This document shows, one piece after another, positions 5,693-28,035 of a DNA stretch of 34,238 bases. The DNA lies in IMG/VR virus record IMGVR_UViG_3300031949_000117, positions 1-34,238 of that record. One strand, given 5' to 3'. The stretch's first letter is position 1, and each line of letters starts with the position of its first letter. Both the position numbers and the translations under genes were made by a program. Origin of the DNA: a virus (taxonomy: Duplodnaviria > Caudoviricetes). The notes beneath the pieces are model-generated. The model made no database searches, was not told where the DNA came from, and worked only from the letters and a program-made list of their open reading frames with translations.

Positions 5693-5864
5693 CTTCGCTC
5701 CTGGGAGGCTTTTCTAGGGCTGTGCGCTGTTCTGCCGCTTTAGTTATCAGCTCCAGTCGGTTAGCAATCGCCGTAGCGTCTTCCCAGGGAAGCTTGTATT
5801 CCTCCTGCAGAACTCTCATTCTGCGCATGAAGCGGCGCTGCTTATCAGTCAGCGCGAATATCAT
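5673..5864 (-). CDS. Hypothetical protein
   Basis: ATG overlaps the polymerase stop (TAATG) and the ORF fills the gap to the next gene. Confidence 0.5.
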   Translation of the reverse strand: MIFALTDKQRRFMRRMRVLQEEYKLPWEDATAIANRLELITKAAEQRTALEKPPRSEDGPAVG

Positions 5865-8425
5865 TAGGCGGCTCCCCAATTTAAGTTGGACGTTCCTACA
5901 GTAAAGGGGATTATGAGAGGGTCTGAGTAAGGGACTACTATCCGGGATAGCTCGAGAATTCGTTTGACTGCCCAGTCTTTCTGATGAGTAGGAAATTGAC
6001 CGGCGAGAGAGTCGTGGACCTGCAGCAGGGTTTCTACCACAGCTGGCTGGTGCATCAGCTTATACATATGCTCTGGTGAAAGATCCCACTCTGGTTCAGG
6101 AACTCCCTGGAAGATACTCATCCAGATCTTATTGATGATGATAGAAACAGTAGACTGAGGAATCCACGCTACCGCCTCCGGCATAACCTGATCATCAATC
6201 CTGTCGAATATATACCAGCGATAGCCGAAGCTGTTCTCTACATATCGACGCTTCTTAACCTCGTCGATCACGCGGTCTTGCCATTGCTTGATGCCTTTGT
6301 AGGTGCCGAGATAGATTGCCTGCGCGCGCTCGGTTTCATGGATAGTCCGTCCAGTGTGGGCCGCGACGGTTCTGGCCTTGCCGAGATAGTCCGTAGCGTG
6401 GCAGAAGACTTTAGAGAACTCCCGCTTGTGCTTCCGCGGCTCGCGGTGGCTCCAGTATTTCGGGTGAGTCTCTACTAGTTCCTCTAGCGGAGGCGGATCT
6501 TTTCCATCCAGGACGTAGACGTTCAGCAGGTGGATGTCTACGCCCTTACGAATAGCCGCCTTGAGTAGCTTGTCGTCGGCGTCCCAGGCCATTACGGTCA
6601 GGTCGGCCCGATCTAAGTCTCCGTTGAAGAAAGTGAATCCGTGGTCTGGCCCGAACATAGAGCGGAGATTAGGGAGCTGATAGGGATCTCCAATCATCGA
6701 GAAGTGTTGGCGTTGGCTCCATTTGCCAACGGACTTAGATTTCTCTGAGGGAATCGTTTGCAGGTTAGCCCCTGATCCAAAGGGATTCTTGGAGGAGGAT
6801 AGCCGGTAAGTCTTCGGGGCCGACTTCCCACTTTCCGAGCCGCCGATGTTAAAGCTGCACCGCATCCGGCCATCGTGGTCACGCTTAGCCATCACAAAGT
6901 CACCAAGGAACTTTCCTAGGGTTCGCAGGTCGGCCACGCAGCTAGTGATTGGGCGAAGCAAGGGCTCCCTCTCTCCAATCCTTCGCAGTGCGTCGTCGTC
7001 GCAGGTGGGGTGAGCAGGCTGTCCCTTTTTTGCCCTAGTCATAATGACCTGCTGTTGTAGGTCCTCGTAGAACAGCGCCATCATTTGCTTTGGGGAGTCA
7101 ATGTTAATGACGTAGCCGAGGACCTCCTTGAGGAACTCTTCTCGAAGGGAAATCTGGTCCTGAATCTCGCCGGCCAAGCTCGCGGCGTTCTCTTCGATTA
7201 CGCGGATTCCCCTCAGCATCGCGCGGAGGACCGGCCAGAACATGGCTTGCTGGAACTGATGAACGCGCTGGAGATTAAGCTTCTCTACAACGCTGGTCTC
7301 AACCTCTCCGACTTCGCGGGTGTAGATGCAGTCTAAGCAATTATACTTCCATCGTGTCTCCGGAGCCATCTTCGGGTTCCAGTGCTTCCCTTCATCCTTC
7401 CAGTAGACATACCACTCGGCGTAGGTGGAAGCTTGGAAAGCCAAGCTCTTCGGTAGATCGGAGAAGATTGTGTGCTGGCTTATCATGGTATCCTGGCCGC
7501 CGCGAGGAACGAAGTGCCACCAGCGATGAACATATTGTGCATCATACAAACCATTCTGCCAGCGAACCTTAGCCTTCAAGTGGGTCGTAACTTTATACAT
7601 CAAGTAGAGAATCTGGGTTTCTTCCTCCAGTGACCAGTAGCCTTCCCTTCCATCATAGCTCATTATAGGAACGCAGATTGCATCGAGCCGTGACCAGGAT
7701 AGACTGAAACATTCGATATGCCCGCCGCGAGTCTCGATATCGAAGTCGAGCCAGGTTTCTTCTCCCGCTTCTAGTCGTCGGTGGAGGGTGCTGAGAACAT
7801 CAATGACCTGGCTGAAGTTTGGCCGGATGATAAAGTTCCACTTGGGCGGGTGGTATTCTCTGGAGTCAAGGTGCTTCGCGGCCCGGCGAAGGTCGTTGAG
7901 GACTGAAGCACGCTGCGACCACTCGCGGAGGACAGAGGCGGGGTGGATGGTAGGAATTAGCTTAAGACCAAGTTCTCTTACTCCAGCTCCTTGAATGACT
8001 TCAGCTTTGAGCTGCGATCCTCGCCACTTTAAGATGCCCCAATGCCCTGTCAACGCCCATAAGGCGGTATTACCGAAGGCCACAATAAGGTTAGGCTGGA
8101 CCATTTCTATCTCAGCCATAAGCTGATGATAGCCTTCCCACACGACTGGAAGCACTTTCTTATCTCGCATCCAGACGTGCTGCGGAGTCACGCCCTTCTT
8201 CTTCATCGCTATCCACGCACCCAGATCATTCCCTGGCGGTCTGTGATTCACCAGGTTAGTGACGAAGCATTCCGAACGCAGAATACCTGCTTCGTGAAGC
8301 ATCCGGTTGAGTTCCTGCCCTGACGCGCCGACAAAAGGAATCCCCTCGCGCTCTTCGTCAGCGCCCCAAGCTTCTCCAACGAGCATTATGCGAGCGGGTA
8401 TAGGCCCGTCGCCGCGGTGAGGCAC
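5864..8425 (-). CDS. polA: Family A DNA polymerase with N-terminal uracil-DNA-glycosylase-like domain and 3'-5' exonuclease
   Basis: UDG family-4-like IMLVGEAWGADEEREGIPFVGASG, IVAFGNTA, PTIHPASVLR; exonuclease FDIET, QNGLYD, YNCLD; polymerase TYRLSS, NLQTIP, motif A DLDRAD, motif B REFSKVFCHATDYLG, motif C QVHDS. Confidence 0.93.
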   Translation of the reverse strand: MPHRGDGPIPARIMLVGEAWGADEEREGIPFVGASGQELNRMLHEAGILRSECFVTNLVNHRPPGNDLGAWIAMKKKGVTPQHVWMRDKKVLPVVWEGYHQLMAEIEMVQPNLIVAFGNTALWALTGHWGILKWRGSQLKAEVIQGAGVRELGLKLIPTIHPASVLREWSQRASVLNDLRRAAKHLDSREYHPPKWNFIIRPNFSQVIDVLSTLHRRLEAGEETWLDFDIETRGGHIECFSLSWSRLDAICVPIMSYDGREGYWSLEEETQILYLMYKVTTHLKAKVRWQNGLYDAQYVHRWWHFVPRGGQDTMISQHTIFSDLPKSLAFQASTYAEWYVYWKDEGKHWNPKMAPETRWKYNCLDCIYTREVGEVETSVVEKLNLQRVHQFQQAMFWPVLRAMLRGIRVIEENAASLAGEIQDQISLREEFLKEVLGYVINIDSPKQMMALFYEDLQQQVIMTRAKKGQPAHPTCDDDALRRIGEREPLLRPITSCVADLRTLGKFLGDFVMAKRDHDGRMRCSFNIGGSESGKSAPKTYRLSSSKNPFGSGANLQTIPSEKSKSVGKWSQRQHFSMIGDPYQLPNLRSMFGPDHGFTFFNGDLDRADLTVMAWDADDKLLKAAIRKGVDIHLLNVYVLDGKDPPPLEELVETHPKYWSHREPRKHKREFSKVFCHATDYLGKARTVAAHTGRTIHETERAQAIYLGTYKGIKQWQDRVIDEVKKRRYVENSFGYRWYIFDRIDDQVMPEAVAWIPQSTVSIIINKIWMSIFQGVPEPEWDLSPEHMYKLMHQPAVVETLLQVHDSLAGQFPTHQKDWAVKRILELSRIVVPYSDPLIIPFTVGTSNLNWGAA

Positions 8426-8517: not shown

Positions 8518-8861
8518 CAGAACTCCTTCCCGTGCTTGTAAGGCCGCCCTGCATTAAACGCCATCTTCGCATCGAAGGCATCTCCGAGTCGAAGGTTATG
8601 CCCAACTGCATAATCCATCACTCGAATAATGAGGTCGGCTACTTCTTCCTCTTCTGCGGAGTAAGCAGGGAGATGACTGCTTGGTAGAGGGACGGTTGAC
8701 CGAACCGCCTCTAGGCGCTCAGCGATTTCACTGACCTCCAGCATCATCATCTCGGCCTTGTTGCGGCCTTCCGGCGGCCAGAATCCCTTCTCCTTCGCGT
8801 TCCGGTGGCAGCGGCGGGCGAGAATATCGAGGGGGTGGTCGGACTTGATTGAGTTGCTCAT
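8517..8861 (-). CDS. mazG: MazG-like nucleotide pyrophosphohydrolase
   Basis: EVSEIAE...EEEVAD acidic motifs and C-terminal KMAFNAGRPYKHGK. Confidence 0.85.
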   Translation of the reverse strand: MSNSIKSDHPLDILARRCHRNAKEKGFWPPEGRNKAEMMMLEVSEIAERLEAVRSTVPLPSSHLPAYSAEEEEVADLIIRVMDYAVGHNLRLGDAFDAKMAFNAGRPYKHGKEF

Positions 8862-10204
8862 GTTAACCCCTCCAGTTCTGGCTCTGCCTTCAACGCATCG
8901 AGCCTCTTCGCACAGAGCGCATACGCCGCCGGGTTATCTTCGAGTGCGGTCGCTTTGCACTTAAGCTCGTTCGCTGCGGGAAGTAGCGGGCCACTCCCAG
9001 CAAAGGGGTCAAGGACAGAGTCCCCTGGTCCAACAGAACGTCGTAATAGGTCGGTATATAGAGCAACTGGCTTCTGCGCGTTATGCCCGAGGTTTTCGTC
9101 GGCTGGGTAGGTAACGAGGTCTGGGTAGATCCGCGTGACGAGCTTCTTCCCTTTGTTCGCGTAGAGGATAAGCTCGTATTTCCTCTGCGGCCCTTGGTCG
9201 ACCCACGGGACTCTGTTCCCGTTCGGCTTGTGCCAGACAAGCGGCGTCCTGAACGGACTCCAACCAGCCGCTGCAAGTATCTGCTTGAGCTCTTCAAATC
9301 GGGTAATGTCACAGAAACAATAAAGATGAGCCTGAGGCTTGGTGATGCGGAAGCCTTCCTTCGCCAGCGTCGTGATGACCGAGAGCCAGTATTCATAGTT
9401 GTCCTTGTATTGGTGTGCGCCGGCTGTATGACCGCCGGAGTCGCCAAACTCATCTGCGTAGATTCCGTAGGGAGGATCAGTGCAGATTATGTCGAATTGT
9501 TCTGCAGGAGCCGCAACCATCCAGGCTAGTGAGTCCTCGTTCAGCACTCGGTGAGCAGTCTCCGCCGAGTAGGTCCGCCCGATCTCAGCAGCGAGCTGGA
9601 CTCTGCGCGCTGTATCTTCCTTCCGTCGAAGGATCTTGAAAGCCTCATCTACGTTCTTGGCTGCCTTGACCTCTGGATCACTAAGGTGCTGCGCGACGAT
9701 CAGTTGCCTTCTCGTAATCTCTTGATGAATACCCACTGCGGAGCCACGCCATTCCTCCGCAACCGCAGCGATCGAAGGAGTAGGCTCGCCGGCCGCAGCA
9801 GCCTGTTCCGTGCGAAGCTCGGCAAGCTGCTTGACAGCATCGGCCTCCTCCTGCCAAGTAAGATTCTCCCGGCGATAGTTCTCATCGAATTCTGCTTCCT
9901 TGAGGGCAAGGCCACTGAGCTCTCCTTTGTCTGTGTAGGGGATTTCGCCGGCGGGAACTAGCTGGTTGTCGTGGGTGAAGCTCCCGCCGAGGTCGTAGAT
10001 GTCTTTGATGGCGCGAAGTCGCCGCTCGCCAGAGACTAGGAACTTCTGGCGGCCGACAAGGGTGTGCTCCTCTCGAAGCACTATCGCATGGGACAGACCG
10101 ACTTTCTTGATAGAGTCGCCAAGCTCGTTCAAGGTAGCTAGATCGAACTCCCTTCGCTGGCGGTTCGAGGGGATGAGAATCTGATCAACAGGTATTGTTT
10201 TCAA
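8858..10204 (-). CDS. ParB-like N-terminal domain fused to N6-A/N4-C DNA methyltransferase (beta class)
   Basis: LGDSIKKVGL...LVSGERRLRA...EN..RENL (ParB); TDPPY catalytic motif precedes VLDPFAGSG SAM-binding motif; HNAQKP. Confidence 0.9.
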   Translation of the reverse strand: MKTIPVDQILIPSNRQRREFDLATLNELGDSIKKVGLSHAIVLREEHTLVGRQKFLVSGERRLRAIKDIYDLGGSFTHDNQLVPAGEIPYTDKGELSGLALKEAEFDENYRRENLTWQEEADAVKQLAELRTEQAAAAGEPTPSIAAVAEEWRGSAVGIHQEITRRQLIVAQHLSDPEVKAAKNVDEAFKILRRKEDTARRVQLAAEIGRTYSAETAHRVLNEDSLAWMVAAPAEQFDIICTDPPYGIYADEFGDSGGHTAGAHQYKDNYEYWLSVITTLAKEGFRITKPQAHLYCFCDITRFEELKQILAAAGWSPFRTPLVWHKPNGNRVPWVDQGPQRKYELILYANKGKKLVTRIYPDLVTYPADENLGHNAQKPVALYTDLLRRSVGPGDSVLDPFAGSGPLLPAANELKCKATALEDNPAAYALCAKRLDALKAEPELEGLT

Positions 10205-15465: not shown

Positions 15466-15869
15466 GAGACTGGCTCTTCTACTTGTGGTGCCGCGGCTAG
15501 TAGGGGCTCTCCGCAGTCCCACTCAACTATGTCCTCAGTGTGTGCGGGGATTACCTCCTCTGGAGTTATCCTTGCTGGGATAACTTGAGTGCCGACCTGC
15601 CTCTGTCCAACTATACGGCGCTGGCACACAGCAGTTCGATAGAACATGAAGGTGAGTTTGACCGGGCCGAACTCCCGGCTGAGGTAGAAATTGCTCTCCG
15701 TGTAGTCTTTCTTGCAGGGTGTCAGTGCCTTAAGGCAGGCTGCAGCTTCCTCCCTTGAATTCAGGCTGTAGCAGGTAAGAGTGCCTCCTGGTCTGGGCAT
15801 CTCCGGATTGGCTTCAATCCAGTCAGCAAGCTCTCTTAGTCCCGCTGCGTATTCTGCGCTTGTAGTCAT
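15462..15869 (-). CDS. Hypothetical protein
   Basis: GGAGG RBS, coupled start and stop; LRELADWIEANP, WDC motifs. Confidence 0.7.
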   Translation of the reverse strand: MTTSAEYAAGLRELADWIEANPEMPRPGGTLTCYSLNSREEAAACLKALTPCKKDYTESNFYLSREFGPVKLTFMFYRTAVCQRRIVGQRQVGTQVIPARITPEEVIPAHTEDIVEWDCGEPLLAAAPQVEEPVS

Positions 15870-16534
15870 GCTACTGCCCTCCTAGCCGCCGCCTTCGTAT
15901 CTATGCTGCACGCGGCCCAGATGTCCGTCCCGGCCGGGAGCTTCAGCAGCAACCCGCCGGAAGGCGTAGCCAGCTGCGTGTCGGCCAGTAACTCCGCCCT
16001 GACTATCGTGCTGATCTGCAAGCAGACCTTCAACCGCACGTCTGGCGCTTCCGCGAACATCTGATCGAGCAGGACGTGCAGCGTGATCTCTCGCTCTGCG
16101 TCCCAAAGGACTCCGCGGACTTTCCGTTCCAGTTCCGTCCCGATGAACCCTTCGACTTCCTCCTGCCCATCTATTACTATCGGCTGATGCTCATGAAGGA
16201 GCTTTCGGGTAGTCGGAAACTGCCGGTGGACGTATTCGCTGTAGTTGCCCAAGACAGTATGGGTCGCGTGGTCTATCAACATCAGGCCACGCGTTCGCTT
16301 CCAGTTGTCGGGATTGCTGTAGCACTCCCGCATACGCTTCGCGGCGGCCTCCAGTGCATCACGAAGCGCTGGGTCTGTCCGGCGCTGCGGCTTGCGAAGC
16401 TTCCGTTCTTGAAAGGCCTCGTTGAAGAGATCTTCCAGCGGGTCAGGTTCCGTCGGGGTAAAGATCTCTGCTTCTATTTCCTTAGACAGGGCGTCTAAGT
16501 CGTCATTGGTCGGTTCTTGCGGGGAGGAGGTCAT
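15866..16534 (-). CDS. Hypothetical protein
   Basis: 222-aa ORF coupled to neighbours. Confidence 0.7.
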   Translation of the reverse strand: MTSSPQEPTNDDLDALSKEIEAEIFTPTEPDPLEDLFNEAFQERKLRKPQRRTDPALRDALEAAAKRMRECYSNPDNWKRTRGLMLIDHATHTVLGNYSEYVHRQFPTTRKLLHEHQPIVIDGQEEVEGFIGTELERKVRGVLWDAEREITLHVLLDQMFAEAPDVRLKVCLQISTIVRAELLADTQLATPSGGLLLKLPAGTDIWAACSIDTKAAARRAVA

Positions 16535-16713
16535 ACTGCGCTTCTTACGAACCAGCCGTATCCTGGCCGCTGGATCAATCCCTCTTCGCTTACGTAGCTT
16601 CGCGCCGTGATCCAGTCAGGTGCGTCTATCTCTTCGAGGAGCCCCTTCTTTTCTTCCAGTGTTTCGGAAAGGAATACACGGCCTTGTTTGTTCTTCTGCA
16701 GGTAGTATTTCAT
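16531..16713 (-). CDS. Hypothetical protein, first gene of replication operon
   Basis: Leader AGGAGGCTCAGATG; promoter-like sequence upstream. Confidence 0.65.
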   Translation of the reverse strand: MKYYLQKNKQGRVFLSETLEEKKGLLEEIDAPDWITARSYVSEEGLIQRPGYGWFVRSAV

Positions 16714-16748
16714 CTGAGCCTCCTGTTGTTGCGGTCACTGAAAATCGT

Positions 16749-16829: not shown

Positions 16830-16865
16830 AAAAGCAAAGCCCCGGCTTTTGACCGAGGACTTTGC
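16830..16865 (-). terminator. Intrinsic terminator ending the tRNA transcript
   Basis: Minus strand GCAAAGTCCTCGGT-CAAAA-GCCGGGGCTTTGC then TTTT. Confidence 0.7.
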
Positions 16866-16966
16866 CGCCGTGGAGGAGGCTCAGAACCACGCCACGACTT
16901 GCCGGGGGCAGGGTTTTTATCCCTGTCGGCTGAAGCTCGCGTAGTCTGGCGAATCTGCGAGCCTGT
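16830..16966 (-). ncRNA. Candidate small regulatory RNA in tRNA 3' trailer with anti-RBS loop
   Basis: Three hairpins (16935-16962, 16901-16930, 16869-16891) plus terminator; third loop is UUCUGAGCCUCCU. Confidence 0.55.
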
Positions 16967-17041
16967 TGGATGCAGAGGAAGGAATTGAACCTTCTACCTC
17001 TAGGTTATGAGCCTAGCGAGCTACCGATGCTCCACTCTGCG
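16967..17041 (-). tRNA. tRNA-Met (CAT), initiator (fMet) type
   Basis: Cloverleaf CGCAGAG/CTCTGCA, D-stem GAGC/GCTC, anticodon stem CTAGG/CCTAG with loop CT-CAT-AA, T arm GAAGG-TTCAATT-CCTTC, encoded CCA; C1:A72 mismatch and A11-U24. Confidence 0.95.
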
Positions 17042-17049
17042 TAGACTTC

Positions 17050-17139
17050 GAGTGCAACTGGAAGCGTTCATCCGTTATCAGGGCCATCTCCCTTATCCGG
17101 CAGTATAGCTATTGGCTGATGGGCCATATCAGCGCACTC
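17050..17139 (-). ncRNA. Candidate structured RNA immediately upstream of the tRNA
   Basis: Closing stem GAGTGC/GCACTC; internal hairpin GCTGAT/ATCAGC; ATGGCCC occurs twice at hairpin apices. Confidence 0.35.
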
Positions 17140-17175
17140 TGGAATAACCCCTGCTCTCGCAGGGGCTCGACCAGA
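17138..17175 (-). terminator. GNRA-capped hairpin after the 221-aa gene (weak terminator or processing site)
   Basis: AGCCCCTGC-GAGA-GCAGGGGTT, extended by TCTGG/CCAGA; only a short U-rich tail. Confidence 0.45.
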
Positions 17176-17184
17176 AAGCCTTGC

Positions 17185-17850
17185 TTAGGCAGTTGCCAGG
17201 TTATCCAGCTCAGCGTCCGCGTCCACCTTCGTGGATTTCGCAAGCCGCTCGTCCTCCATCCGCTTGACCACCTTCCCGACCTTGGAGTTCGGGTTGCGGA
17301 AGGAATCATACAGCTCCTTGCGGGACAGCTTCTCGCTCTTGGCCTTGGCGTCGTCCAGCTTCTTCTGCAGGAACGCCTTGACTTGATCGAGAGTCTTGCC
17401 GGAGACTTCCACCAGCGCTTGCACGACCACCGAGGCACCAGCGAACCCGCCGCCGCCTTCACTGACTGCGCGCCATACGCCTTCGCCGTAGAGCTGATCG
17501 TGCAGGCTGTCTGTTGCCAGCACCATGTCATCCTCGCTCAGCGGCTTGTCGGCTGGGGCGGCCAGTTCATCCCCGTATTTCTGCTCTCCGCCGTGGCCGG
17601 CGAACTTGGGGATCAGCCCGGCTCTGATCGGATACACCCGGCTCTTCCCGTTGCGGTAGTCCATACGGATCTTGACCGCGCCCTCTTCCAGCGTGATGGT
17701 CGCGCCATCCACGATGATCTTGGACTCGTCGATCAGTGTCTCCTTCTGAACCTTCCGCTTCCCGGCGAAGCCGACTTCCCGTCCATCTTCCATCTTGACG
17801 AGGGTGATTTCGGTCTTGGCCTTCTTGCTGCTTTCTTGCGCTTCTGCCAT
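17185..17850 (-). CDS. Hypothetical early protein, paralog of 21182-21745
   Basis: AGGAG RBS, strongly biased codon usage; shares W....GGGG, V.A...V.G and KVDAD..L..LA with 21182-21745. Confidence 0.85.
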   Translation of the reverse strand: MAEAQESSKKAKTEITLVKMEDGREVGFAGKRKVQKETLIDESKIIVDGATITLEEGAVKIRMDYRNGKSRVYPIRAGLIPKFAGHGGEQKYGDELAAPADKPLSEDDMVLATDSLHDQLYGEGVWRAVSEGGGGFAGASVVVQALVEVSGKTLDQVKAFLQKKLDDAKAKSEKLSRKELYDSFRNPNSKVGKVVKRMEDERLAKSTKVDADAELDNLATA

Positions 17851-17922: not shown

Positions 17923-17951
17923 ACTATACCATCATTTCCGCCGAATGTCAA
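17923..17951 (-). promoter_or_regulatory. Near-consensus sigma70 promoter
   Basis: TTGACA-N17-TATAGT, with TG upstream of the -10. Confidence 0.85.
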
Positions 17952-18534: not shown

Positions 18535-18707
18535 GCGCTCTCCTTCCTCTTCCCGCTGCTCGCCAGCGTAGTCCACTCGATCTTCGCATCGCTAAGGAGC
18601 TGCATCAGCAGCTCTGCTTCCCGCGAGTGTTCAGGAACCTGATAGACCAGCACGTCGGATTTGCCCGGGGCTGGTCGCGGGTCTACAGCGATTAGGCGGA
18701 TTATCAT
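18531..18707 (-). CDS. Hypothetical 58-aa protein (below ORF-track cutoff)
   Basis: MIIRLIAVDPRPAPGKSDVLVYQV...; ATGA overlaps at both ends. Confidence 0.55.
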   Translation of the reverse strand: MIIRLIAVDPRPAPGKSDVLVYQVPEHSREAELLMQLLSDAKIEWTTLASSGKRKESA

Positions 18708-18976
18708 CTCAGCAACTCCTTCAGTCCCTCTGCGAACTTCCGCGGCCCAACGCCGGATTTCTTGACCACCACCGCTCCGAGTTCCTTCTGTATGCTGTAG
18801 CCTATCCCATCGCAGCCCCAGACACTTCCTGGCCGTGACATGATGAAGCGGGAGAGGATAGTATGGGCCTCCTGCAGCTCTCGGTCGAAGTCCTCTGCTG
18901 CGATGTTCGGCTTGCTGACATTCACAACAGACTCGTCGTGAGTGATCGAGAAGCCTTTATACGTGACGGTTTTCAT
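18704..18976 (-). CDS. Hypothetical protein
   Basis: Leader AGAGGCTCAGATG. Confidence 0.65.
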   Translation of the reverse strand: MKTVTYKGFSITHDESVVNVSKPNIAAEDFDRELQEAHTILSRFIMSRPGSVWGCDGIGYSIQKELGAVVVKKSGVGPRKFAEGLKELLR

Positions 18977-19044
18977 CTGAGCCTCTGTGTTCGCGGCCTG
19001 ATCGCCGCCGAAAGGGGCCGGTTGCCCAGCCCCTTCAGGCGTGG

Positions 19045-19227
19045 TCAGTCCTTCCAGGTCACGGTCACTTCGATCTCATTCGCAGGAATCGACCCCATCA
19101 CCGCTTGCTCGACGTAGACGCTTTCCACGACCGGCTTGTCACTTGCTGCTGGACGCGGCGTAGCCTTGAATACGTGGGTGTTCTTGGTGCTTTTGTAGAT
19201 CTGCATATTAACAATCTTGCTTGGCAT
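19045..19227 (-). CDS. Hypothetical protein
   Basis: Leader GGAGGCTCAAATG; followed by a GCAA-tetraloop hairpin (~19010-19036). Confidence 0.65.
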   Translation of the reverse strand: MPSKIVNMQIYKSTKNTHVFKATPRPAASDKPVVESVYVEQAVMGSIPANEIEVTVTWKD

Positions 19228-19239
19228 TTGAGCCTCCAG

Positions 19240-19645: not shown

Positions 19646-19780
19646 TTCAGTCTCCTATTCTCACCGCGAACTTGATCCAGTATTCGAATTTCCTCTTCAG
19701 CACCGGGGCGCACTGGGCGACACCACAAACCCCGCGCAAATCCCGCCACTTGATACAAGCCGTCCTGAAGCACGGAGCCT

Positions 19781-21181: not shown

Positions 21182-21745
21182 TTACGCGAGTTCTTCGAGC
21201 GCCTTGTCTGCATCCACCTTCGGCGCAGGCATTTTCTCGCGCCTGATCTCCTCCATCGCTTCCGCCACCCGTTTCCCGCTTCGCAGAAACGCAAGGGCTG
21301 CTTTTGTATCCCCTCCAAATGACATCTCTTTCCCGTCCGGCATCCTGCGTTTCGCGCTCGCGTATTGCGCGACAAAGGCCTCGGCCGTTTCGTAATTGAC
21401 GCCCTTGACTCGGGCAATCGCTTCAACGGTCAAGCTCCGTCCGCCCCCACCCGCGCCGGTCAGCGTCCAGTCCGCCGTCCCCGATTGATAATGCTCGATC
21501 AGGGATTGCATAGCCAACGATTTCTCGGCTGGCGATGCCGGAATACCCGTTTTCGGGTCGCGGGATTTCGCAGCCTTGTCCGCGATTCGATCCGACATTC
21601 CCTCAACCAGCGCCCGTTCCAATACCTCCGGGCTGATTTGGTCGCGGTGCAATGTCAGGGTTCCGACACCAGCTACGCCGAATGACCAGATACCGTCGGC
21701 GTATGACGTGGATACAACGCTGTTGCTTTTCGGTTTGTTTCTCAT
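21182..21745 (-). CDS. Hypothetical first early protein, paralog of 17185-17850
   Basis: Leader GGAGGTTCAGATG at ATG 21745; motifs shared with 17185-17850. Confidence 0.8.
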   Translation of the reverse strand: MRNKPKSNSVVSTSYADGIWSFGVAGVGTLTLHRDQISPEVLERALVEGMSDRIADKAAKSRDPKTGIPASPAEKSLAMQSLIEHYQSGTADWTLTGAGGGGRSLTVEAIARVKGVNYETAEAFVAQYASAKRRMPDGKEMSFGGDTKAALAFLRSGKRVAEAMEEIRREKMPAPKVDADKALEELA

Positions 21746-22221
21746 CTGAACCTCCGATATGCGTGAGTCGTCCGCCCGCACAATGCGGGAGACGATGACA
21801 CGCCGTAATGTTAAAGAGCAAATGCACTGTTCTGGTGCATGTCCGGCGACCGCCGGATACCACTCTGACATGCAAACCGCGTGCCAGTTCCCCACTCAAT
21901 GCAATCAATGGGTTACGTGGAGGGGTGGCTGGTGATGTGCCGCCCTGCGTCACATTGTGCCGCAATTTGCGGCTGGTCAATCATGCACCAATTCAGTGCA
22001 TTGTATACCTTATCATGTTGCGCTGCAGCATCGCCACCCATGCGGCACTGCACCATCGCCCACCCCTTGCCGCCGCGAGCCCGGAATCAAGGGGCCGGGG
22101 GGAAATCGCGGCCCCTGAAAAAATTGATAAATGCACTGGGAAATTTTCCAGTCCCCTGGGTATTAGACGTCTACGGGCCGAAGGCCCGAAGGATAGATGC
22201 CCGGGGAGACGCCTGAAGGGT

Positions 22222-27577: not shown

Positions 27578-27731
27578 GTGGGAGGAAGGAAAGGTTCTGG
27601 ACCTTGGCAAGGACCAGCAGCTGCTGCTTAATGCAGCCGCTATTGGTGAGTGTCAGGCGTTCAGGTTTCTGCAAGAGCTGGATTACGAGAGGCTGAAAGG
27701 AGAATTTGAGGATGAATCAGAGCGGACTTGA
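27477..27731 (+). CDS. Hypothetical protein following portal
   Basis: F.DWLQHPVT motif; overlaps the portal 3' end; start uncertain (27462 or 27477). Confidence 0.6.
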   Translation: MLLTEEAFADWLQHPVTEAVKKLLAAKRQERKDEWEEGKVLDLGKDQQLLLNAAAIGECQAFRFLQELDYERLKGEFEDESERT

Positions 27732-28035
27732 GCCAGTAGGACGAGCGGTCTTGATCAGGATGATCGAGCTAGATAGCCTAAAGGCTTCCTTGATCAAGAT
27801 CCCTGATCACGTGCAGCGAAACTCTGCGGTAATGGAACAGCGAGCGGAGATTATCGCGGTCGGTCCAGAGTGCTGGGCCGATGAAAAGGAGCCGCGGGCG
27901 GCTGTCGGTGACAAGGTGATCGTCACTAAGATGGCCGGATATATCACGAAGGGTCCTGCCGACGGGCAGCTGTATCGCCTGGTGAACGACAGGGATGTCT
28001 TTTGCAAGATCTCGAAGGAGAGCAACGGTGGCTGA
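27712..28035 (+). CDS. groES: GroES-like co-chaperonin
   Basis: LEPVGRAVLI, AEIIAVGP, VGDKVIV.KMAG, YRLVNDRDV. Confidence 0.85.
   Translation: MNQSGLEPVGRAVLIRMIELDSLKASLIKIPDHVQRNSAVMEQRAEIIAVGPECWADEKEPRAAVGDKVIVTKMAGYITKGPADGQLYRLVNDRDVFCKISKESNGG

Follow-up and report, generated by a model that had tools for sequence, protein, structure and literature searches.

A structured RNA that is not yet catalogued is encoded on the minus strand of the phage contig studied here. The comparison of related phages makes it very probable that this RNA is real, with strong evidence that its seed pairs with the leaders of a set of tagged early genes. The tip of its seed hairpin changes in step with the tag across a large group of uncultured phages, so that one RNA likely turns the tagged genes off together. 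The window, that is, the whole stretch of 34,238 nt that was analysed, is one 34.2-kb phage contig with a completeness estimate of 74%. According to its annotation, the genes for DNA polymerase, primase, a Sak4-like annealing protein and a methyltransferase lie on the minus strand, and the terminase and portal genes lie on the plus strand. The RNA locus is located within a cluster of small unannotated minus-strand genes, between the strand divergence at ~22 kb and the replication genes. This cluster is called the early block here, a timing that we infer from its position and from sigma-70-like promoters. The features that are needed below are as follows.

16830..16931, minus strand: conserved RNA unit (5' hairpin, seed hairpin and terminator); its 5' boundary is the start of conservation with the closest relatives
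16830..16866, minus strand: intrinsic-terminator-like hairpin with a U-rich tail that ends the RNA (predicted fold and terminator listing)
16867..16898, minus strand: seed hairpin; outer stem GUCGUGG (16898-16892) / CCACGGC (16873-16867) with 18 nt enclosed
16874..16886, minus strand: seed UUCUGAGCCUCCU, complementary to the Shine-Dalgarno sequence (SD), the spacer and the first start-codon base of tagged genes
16902..16931, minus strand: 5' hairpin (AGCCGAC...CCCCCGG), retained in the closest clade and variable in others
16934..16964, minus strand: hairpin 1 of the initial annotation, missing from the closest relatives and outside the conserved unit
16967..17041, minus strand: tRNA-Met(CAT), an insertion in the lineage of the window (2 of 112 loci)
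17138..17175, minus strand: long hairpin with a 3x3 internal loop past the anchor stop codon, a candidate processing site
17185..17850, minus strand: anchor gene (221 aa, no family, leader untagged) with a basic C-terminal helical domain and a weak ANTAR-like fold match
17923..17951, minus strand: sigma-70-like promoter (11 of 12 consensus positions) upstream of the anchor gene
16713..16724, minus strand: leader tag of gene 16531-16713, the first gene past the terminator of the RNA (12/12 pairs)
18976..18985, minus strand: leader tag of gene 18704-18976 (10 pairs)
19229..19237, minus strand: leader tag of gene 19045-19227 (9 contiguous pairs)
21745..21755, minus strand: leader tag of gene 21182-21745 (11 pairs, one G-U)

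Three further genes of the window deserve mention. A GroES-like co-chaperonin gene (27706-28035, plus strand) is flanked by portal and head genes, a DNA methyltransferase (8858-10204, minus strand) has a fused ParB-like N-terminal domain, and the N-terminus of the DNA polymerase (5864-8425, minus strand) resembles what we take to be a uracil-DNA glycosylase motif. A nucleotide search of cultured phages with the window returned the tRNA as its sole match. The host hints, one metagenome-assembled Gammaproteobacteria contig and one cultured relative labelled Microcystis phage, are too thin to assign a host.

The initial annotation had described a tRNA followed by three hairpins and a terminator. 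This arrangement was confirmed: the tRNA upstream of the RNA is tRNA-Met(CAT), and the fold has a z value of –3.96 with none of 200 shuffles equally stable. The third hairpin had been drawn as a CGUGG/CCACG stem with an open 13-nt loop. That register was given up, as it costs +5.8 kcal/mol and the relatives retain the outer GUCGUGG/CCACGGC register. In the predicted fold of the window, the outer stem surrounds an inner GGUU/AGCC hairpin. The seed therefore does not form an open anti-SD loop: in the predicted fold, the bases specific to the tag lie exposed and those of the anti-SD are masked in part. Over 57 clusters of relatives with the canonical seed, the predicted mean unpaired probability is ~0.9 for the seed UGA and ~0.35 for the anti-SD U and C. 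The length of the RNA was also revised, because the conserved unit has ~100 nt (16830-16931), not 137, where an RNA of ~135 nt had been proposed. Its origin as a tRNA trailer did not survive as a general rule. In only 2 of 112 loci (the window and L001) does a tRNA separate the hairpin from the upstream gene, and the closest relatives, L083 and L084 (90% protein identity), have neither the tRNA nor the first hairpin; their stop codon is followed almost immediately by the unit that starts at 16931. On the same grounds, the known class of tRNA 3'-trailer sRNAs was rejected as the rule for this RNA. As a side observation, the acceptor of the two tRNA-Met(CAT) genes (16967-17041 on the minus strand of the window and 3580-3654 in L001) has C opposite A at its first position and is thus unpaired there, a trait of initiator tRNAs, and both adjoin an RNA directed at translation starts.

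Related loci were collected through the 221-aa upstream gene (17185-17850), and 125 non-redundant loci were retained, the window counted. L082 (the same as the window), nine loci in which the anchor end was not usable and 27 that were duplicates or had short flanks were left out. Clustering at 90% protein identity gave 81 clusters. The hairpin was found in 112 of the 125 loci, 95 of them by nhmmer with a profile made from 49 of the same sequences at a loose threshold (E ≤ 10) and 17 by eye; a diverged copy in L024 brings the total to 113. It is always on the strand of the anchor gene, at most ~940 nt from the gene end. Both stem anchors were located in 63 of the 81 clusters, and the 18 others were left out of the stem counts. 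When the anchors were set beforehand, pairing was seen in 194 of 252 variable cells, compared with 101–114 for slid partners and a maximum of 124 cells in 1000 shuffles. Across the 63 clusters, pairs 4–7 show every one of the four Watson-Crick types, and pair 2 of the outer stem is a conserved U-G (61/63). Judged on the sequences of the relatives, the seed-hairpin stem is maintained by compensatory changes. The strand of the RNA was assigned because of this U-G pair, because the sense strand folds better in 67 of the 81 clusters and because a downstream terminator-like element is present in the sense direction in 36 of the 81 and in the opposite direction in 5. That no more than 36 of the 81 have such an element by this test speaks against the preferred reading.

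A pattern scan that was independent of the protein gave 74 further loci, many on contigs already in the set. When the stem had at least 7 bp, 20 of 23 loci had tagged starts and 18 of 23 had the anchor gene; when there was no such stem, the corresponding counts were 3 and 1 of 51. Three of the five stem-positive loci without the anchor gene end at most ~400 nt upstream. The stem-positive locus L179 has the last codons of the anchor gene, and L224 has no tag and may be a chance match. The RNA matches no Rfam family; the tRNA was the only match in the window, at gathering score as well as at E ≤ 1, and 28 related loci gave two tRNAs only. Literature searches, in which the set of 10,006 candidate viral RNAs of PMC10690425 was checked in part, yielded no description of it. 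No repeated tag was found in six long-flank loci without the RNA, and the sole cultured relative found, Mel-JY34 (L239, PP438425; 912-1755), has the anchor gene, no hairpin and no repeated tag. Three loci (L023, L034 and L048) have tags and no RNA within the 438–757 nt of sequence at hand. The sister loci L009 (5636-5890) and L066 (5796-6140), which lack the hairpin, share another long structured non-coding region behind the anchor gene, with no Rfam match for it.

The covariation of seed and leaders is the main evidence. It had been set beforehand as the test of the proposed trans-acting, multi-leader RNA, and it was found in the relatives; repression by this RNA, its expression and its processing are parts that we infer. 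The seed-by-tag table is diagonal across clusters. In 57 canonical-seed clusters (688 kb), 147 starts have the canonical tag, and in 22 variant-seed clusters (264 kb), 55 starts have their own tag versus 9 with the canonical tag. L007 is the clearest case in counts, with 11 own-tag starts and 0 canonical ones; its seed is UUGAGCACUCC and its leaders are GGAGTGCTCAA. The corresponding seeds and leaders are AUGGUUGCCUCC and GGAGGCAACCAT in L004, UGAGACUCC and GGAGTCTCA in L136, and UUAGUCUCC and GGAGACTAA in L012. In L038 (seed UGAGCCUU, leaders AAGGCTCA), a seed change within an SD position is matched in four of five leaders. Copies of the own tag precede a start in 207 of 292 cases on the same strand and in 10 of 72 on the other strand; a control that preserved the SD gave a mean of 10.6 and a maximum of 21.

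When the own tag was ranked among 11 tags in 79 clusters (2 of the 81 were left out of this count), it came top in 51, tied in 12 and lost in 11, and 5 had no tags. Several of the losses are short 7-nt matches (L011, L074, L076 and L079). L041 is discordant, with a single position at which the seed fails to match the five tagged leaders, and in canonical loci 27 of 145 leaders pair across only 6–7 nt. There are about a dozen seed classes, and 84 of the 112 loci have one common seed core; most relatives thus have a common seed, and related phages are non-independent samples. Variant seeds appear at scattered positions on the protein tree, a quick tree whose many unsettled forks allow no count of events.

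The matches in the window itself are less telling. All four leader matches proposed at the outset were recovered at their starts and lengths, and the plus-strand copy indeed has no ATG after it. The four tagged leaders took ranks 1–4 among 50 hand-picked window leaders in predicted, accessibility-corrected binding (–12.7, –10.9, –10.8 and –9.6 kcal/mol; the next leader, –6.7), and untagged SD leaders, including that of the anchor gene, score much lower. With dinucleotide shuffles of the 137-mer, 30 of 1000 matched three leaders by an exact 8-mer and 12 of 1000 matched at least two by a 9-mer; with G-U permitted, 48 of 300 shuffles matched at least four leaders. The leader matches in the window genome alone are only modestly beyond chance. 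Therefore, the single-genome match is suggestive only, and the comparative data carry the case. Two more sites in the window belong here. A 43-codon GTG ORF (19647-19773, minus strand), outside the 50 ranked leaders, has a fifth, weaker 8-nt tag. The gene at 15866-16534 (minus strand) is, by position and size, a member of the family most often tagged in relatives (30 genes). It is untagged in the window; its overlap with the stop of the 16713 gene, which is tagged, may let control pass through translational coupling.

Among the relatives, tagged starts number 213 and are most frequent between –6 and +2 kb of the anchor gene, which is itself untagged in 74 of 75 clusters. Six relatives that are complete or nearly so gave 46 tag rows, of which 40 are in the early block on the anchor strand (the 46 rows count two tag sites of G003 twice, for alternative starts). 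In 42 of 73 clusters, the first gene past the RNA has a tag. The targets are mostly unannotated; a scan of 30 proteins gave matches to SprT-like, HD and PD-(D/E)XK families for a few that are tagged. An SD-like word is retained in 189 of the 213 tagged leaders and is lacking in 24. Sigma-70-like promoters precede 26 of 187 tagged genes versus 17 of 810 random sites. The anchor gene probably has a distant paralogue in the gene at 21182-21745 (hhalign probability 80). This paralogue is tagged and the anchor gene is untagged; in the relatives, two genes of a 19-member tagged family are matched by the anchor profile.

Taken on sequence grounds, it is likely that the RNA is a trans-acting antisense RNA derived from a 3' UTR, which represses the tagged early regulon. 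The exposed UGAG of the seed would make the first contact with the CUCA spacer. Pairing would then zip through the weakly paired anti-SD bases until it covers the SD together with the spacer and, in many cases, the start-codon bases AU. With recognition beginning in this way at the tag-specific spacer, ordinary SD leaders would be spared. Repression is the most likely outcome because the duplex spans the SD and often the start codon, and because most tagged leaders have an SD-like word, so that pairing would compete with the ribosome. Transcription of the anchor gene from a host-type promoter would yield the RNA as the 3' end of the transcript. A sigma-70-like site between the anchor gene and the RNA was seen in 1 of 79 clusters; with no such promoter of its own in the other 78, the RNA is probably derived from the anchor transcript. 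It would be trimmed at the upstream hairpin and, in the window, possibly also at the tRNA. The long hairpin at 17138-17175 may be an RNase III-like site by its resemblance to such sites. In 27 of 79 clusters, versus 5 expected, a long internal-loop hairpin of this kind separates the gene from the RNA; the closest relatives are without it. As the RNA accumulates, it may act as a delayed off-switch of the early regulon from which its own anchor gene escapes. The 21745 gene has its own terminator (21166-21145) and the 16713 gene lies past the terminator of the RNA, so that both would need pairing in trans.

The anchor protein has no PHROG, Pfam, PDB-sequence or Foldseek assignment. One unnamed homologue was found in BFVD, the Atlas gave unnamed viral clusters only, and the family has at least 1581 clusters, all unannotated. 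Residues 133–205 have a confident model (pLDDT 88). The best four of 48,161 chains for this C-terminal model were ANTAR domains with Z values of 4.9–5.4, which fall under the trust level of the tool for helical bundles (rmsd 1.6–2.3 Å, 51–53 residues), and a second structure comparison had the same four among its top 5. The domain is basic and in its predicted fold resembles the ANTAR RNA-binding domains of NasR, EutV, AmiR and Rv1626. However, the anchor protein differs from ANTAR domains in having no sequence-level match and no enriched dual-hexaloop target motif. ANTAR was not seen in the Foldseek results for the anchor model, Pfam ANTAR was absent among the matches listed for 12 and for 78 members (for the 78, 25 of 36 families), and no ANTAR link was present in 47 of 150 listed distant homologues. 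The tandem hexaloop motif (G at loop positions 1 and 4) occurred near the RNA in 10 of 81 cases versus 29 of 405 random windows. ANTAR-like bundles also exist outside RNA binders, as in ArdA (PMC2731889). The ANTAR likeness of the modelled C-terminal domain is thus a weak lead only. It underlies a possible but rather unlikely extension, in which a phage ribonucleoprotein has the RNA as its guide: the untagged upstream protein would bind the conserved stem base via its ANTAR-like domain, and the exchangeable 8–12-nt seed would steer it to the tagged leaders. Besides the weak fold match, this is opposed by at least six loci and Mel-JY34, which retain the protein without a recognisable RNA. If true, this would amount to a translational silencer that is guided by RNA and reprogrammed in nature, and it would explain in general the purpose of phage start-associated sequences.

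An antisense repressor acting in lytic timing has also to be weighed against immunity. C4 of P1 and P7 is a processed phage RNA whose loops pair with a phage ribosome-binding region, and its specificity follows the loop (PMC5320573, PMC12197685). The RNA described here has the same logic. It might accordingly serve for immunity or superinfection exclusion in a latent or carrier state, with no lytic timer, and its seed variants would be immunity groups, as the loop-dependent specificity of P1/P7 C4 (PMC5320573) and the dozen or so seed classes would allow. We consider this improbable, because the seed core shared by 84 of the 112 loci is unlike diversifying immunity and because the bacterial genome collection yielded only one locus. 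Moreover, an integrase or repressor was found neither among the 55 window ORFs scanned (contig 74% complete) nor in the annotation of two complete relatives. No antirepressor showed up among the same 55 ORFs, which come from a contig that is 74% complete and include targets that lack annotation. Membership in the C4 family itself was rejected. C4 has three stems, is a substrate of RNase P and acts on ant mRNA in immunity through two loops, a' and b' (PMC5320573, PMC12197685); the RNA family here has one seed hairpin instead of three stem-loops, many dispersed targets and no Rfam match.

Somewhat less probable still is that the RNA activates or licenses the tagged mRNAs, either by opening them or by bringing ribosomes together with a phage protein. 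What stays constant in the match is the spacer beside the start codon, the 7-nt pairing of some clades falls outside most of the SD, and 24 of the 213 tagged leaders are without an SD-like word, all of which would suit activation. The pairing nevertheless spans the SD and often the AU of the start, a usable SD is present in 189 of the 213 leaders, and some tagged genes would be transcribed before the RNA, and 26/187 have a sigma-70-like promoter in front (17/810 for random sites). It is very improbable that the tag is a binding or cleavage site of a phage protein, of the RegA/RegB or CsrA type, with the hairpin as an other-strand decoy or an inverted DNA operator. The opposite strand would indeed present the tag itself, and the neighbouring protein has a basic helical domain. 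On that strand, however, the U-G of pair 2 (61/63) becomes a C-A mismatch; folding (67/81) and terminators (36 versus 5) favour the sense direction, and an operator has no need of compensatory stems. Finally, a plain tRNA 3' trailer with chance or generic anti-SD leader matches can practically be dismissed, even though the window hairpin does come after a tRNA and 48 of 300 shuffles reach four leaders with G-U permitted, since a tRNA is at only 2 of 112 loci, untagged SD leaders, that of the anchor included, score far lower, and the seed-by-tag table with its covarying seeds and tags largely refutes it.

For the antisense repressor that is preferred here, two kinds of known systems are relevant. 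Bacterial sRNAs derived from 3' UTRs can act on several targets by a short seed that occludes the ribosome-binding site, and they come from mRNA ends with a terminator. As a trans-encoded base-pairing sRNA would have it, the present RNA shows short complementarity to several unlinked mRNAs that is kept by covariation. It differs from the 3'-UTR-derived sRNAs in that its targets bear a dedicated common tag in the same phage genome and its seed is held within a stem with a sequence-conserved base.

The second system, the start-associated sequences (SAS) known from mycobacteriophages of cluster K and Microbacterium phages of cluster EF (PMC3203893, PMC7302621), consists of conserved asymmetric tags at the position of the ribosome-binding site. 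They have extra bases unable to pair with 16S rRNA, one orientation and non-structural genes behind them, and in four K1 phages there is a single, oppositely oriented copy unconnected to a start. The SAS paper leaves undecided whether an RNA or a protein is the binder, and it puts forward no hairpin. The tags of the window family share these features: they are at the ribosome-binding site, have extra conserved bases and are in one orientation before non-structural genes. The single inverted copy away from a start has its counterpart in the seed itself. In contrast, the tags are unlike the 13-bp cluster K or EF consensus and the phages are unrelated. Here, furthermore, the inverted copy is located in an RNA stem that covaries, and it follows the tags from relative to relative.

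In lytic phages, the shut-off of early genes is attributed mainly to proteins. If the antisense reading is true, the ribosome-binding spacer would contain a barcode that marks a phage-wide regulon and that one RNA reads, and the seed would switch together with up to 11 leaders in evolution. It would represent a compact, seed-swappable repressor design. It would also give a testable model for the start-associated sequences, which have been unexplained since 2011.
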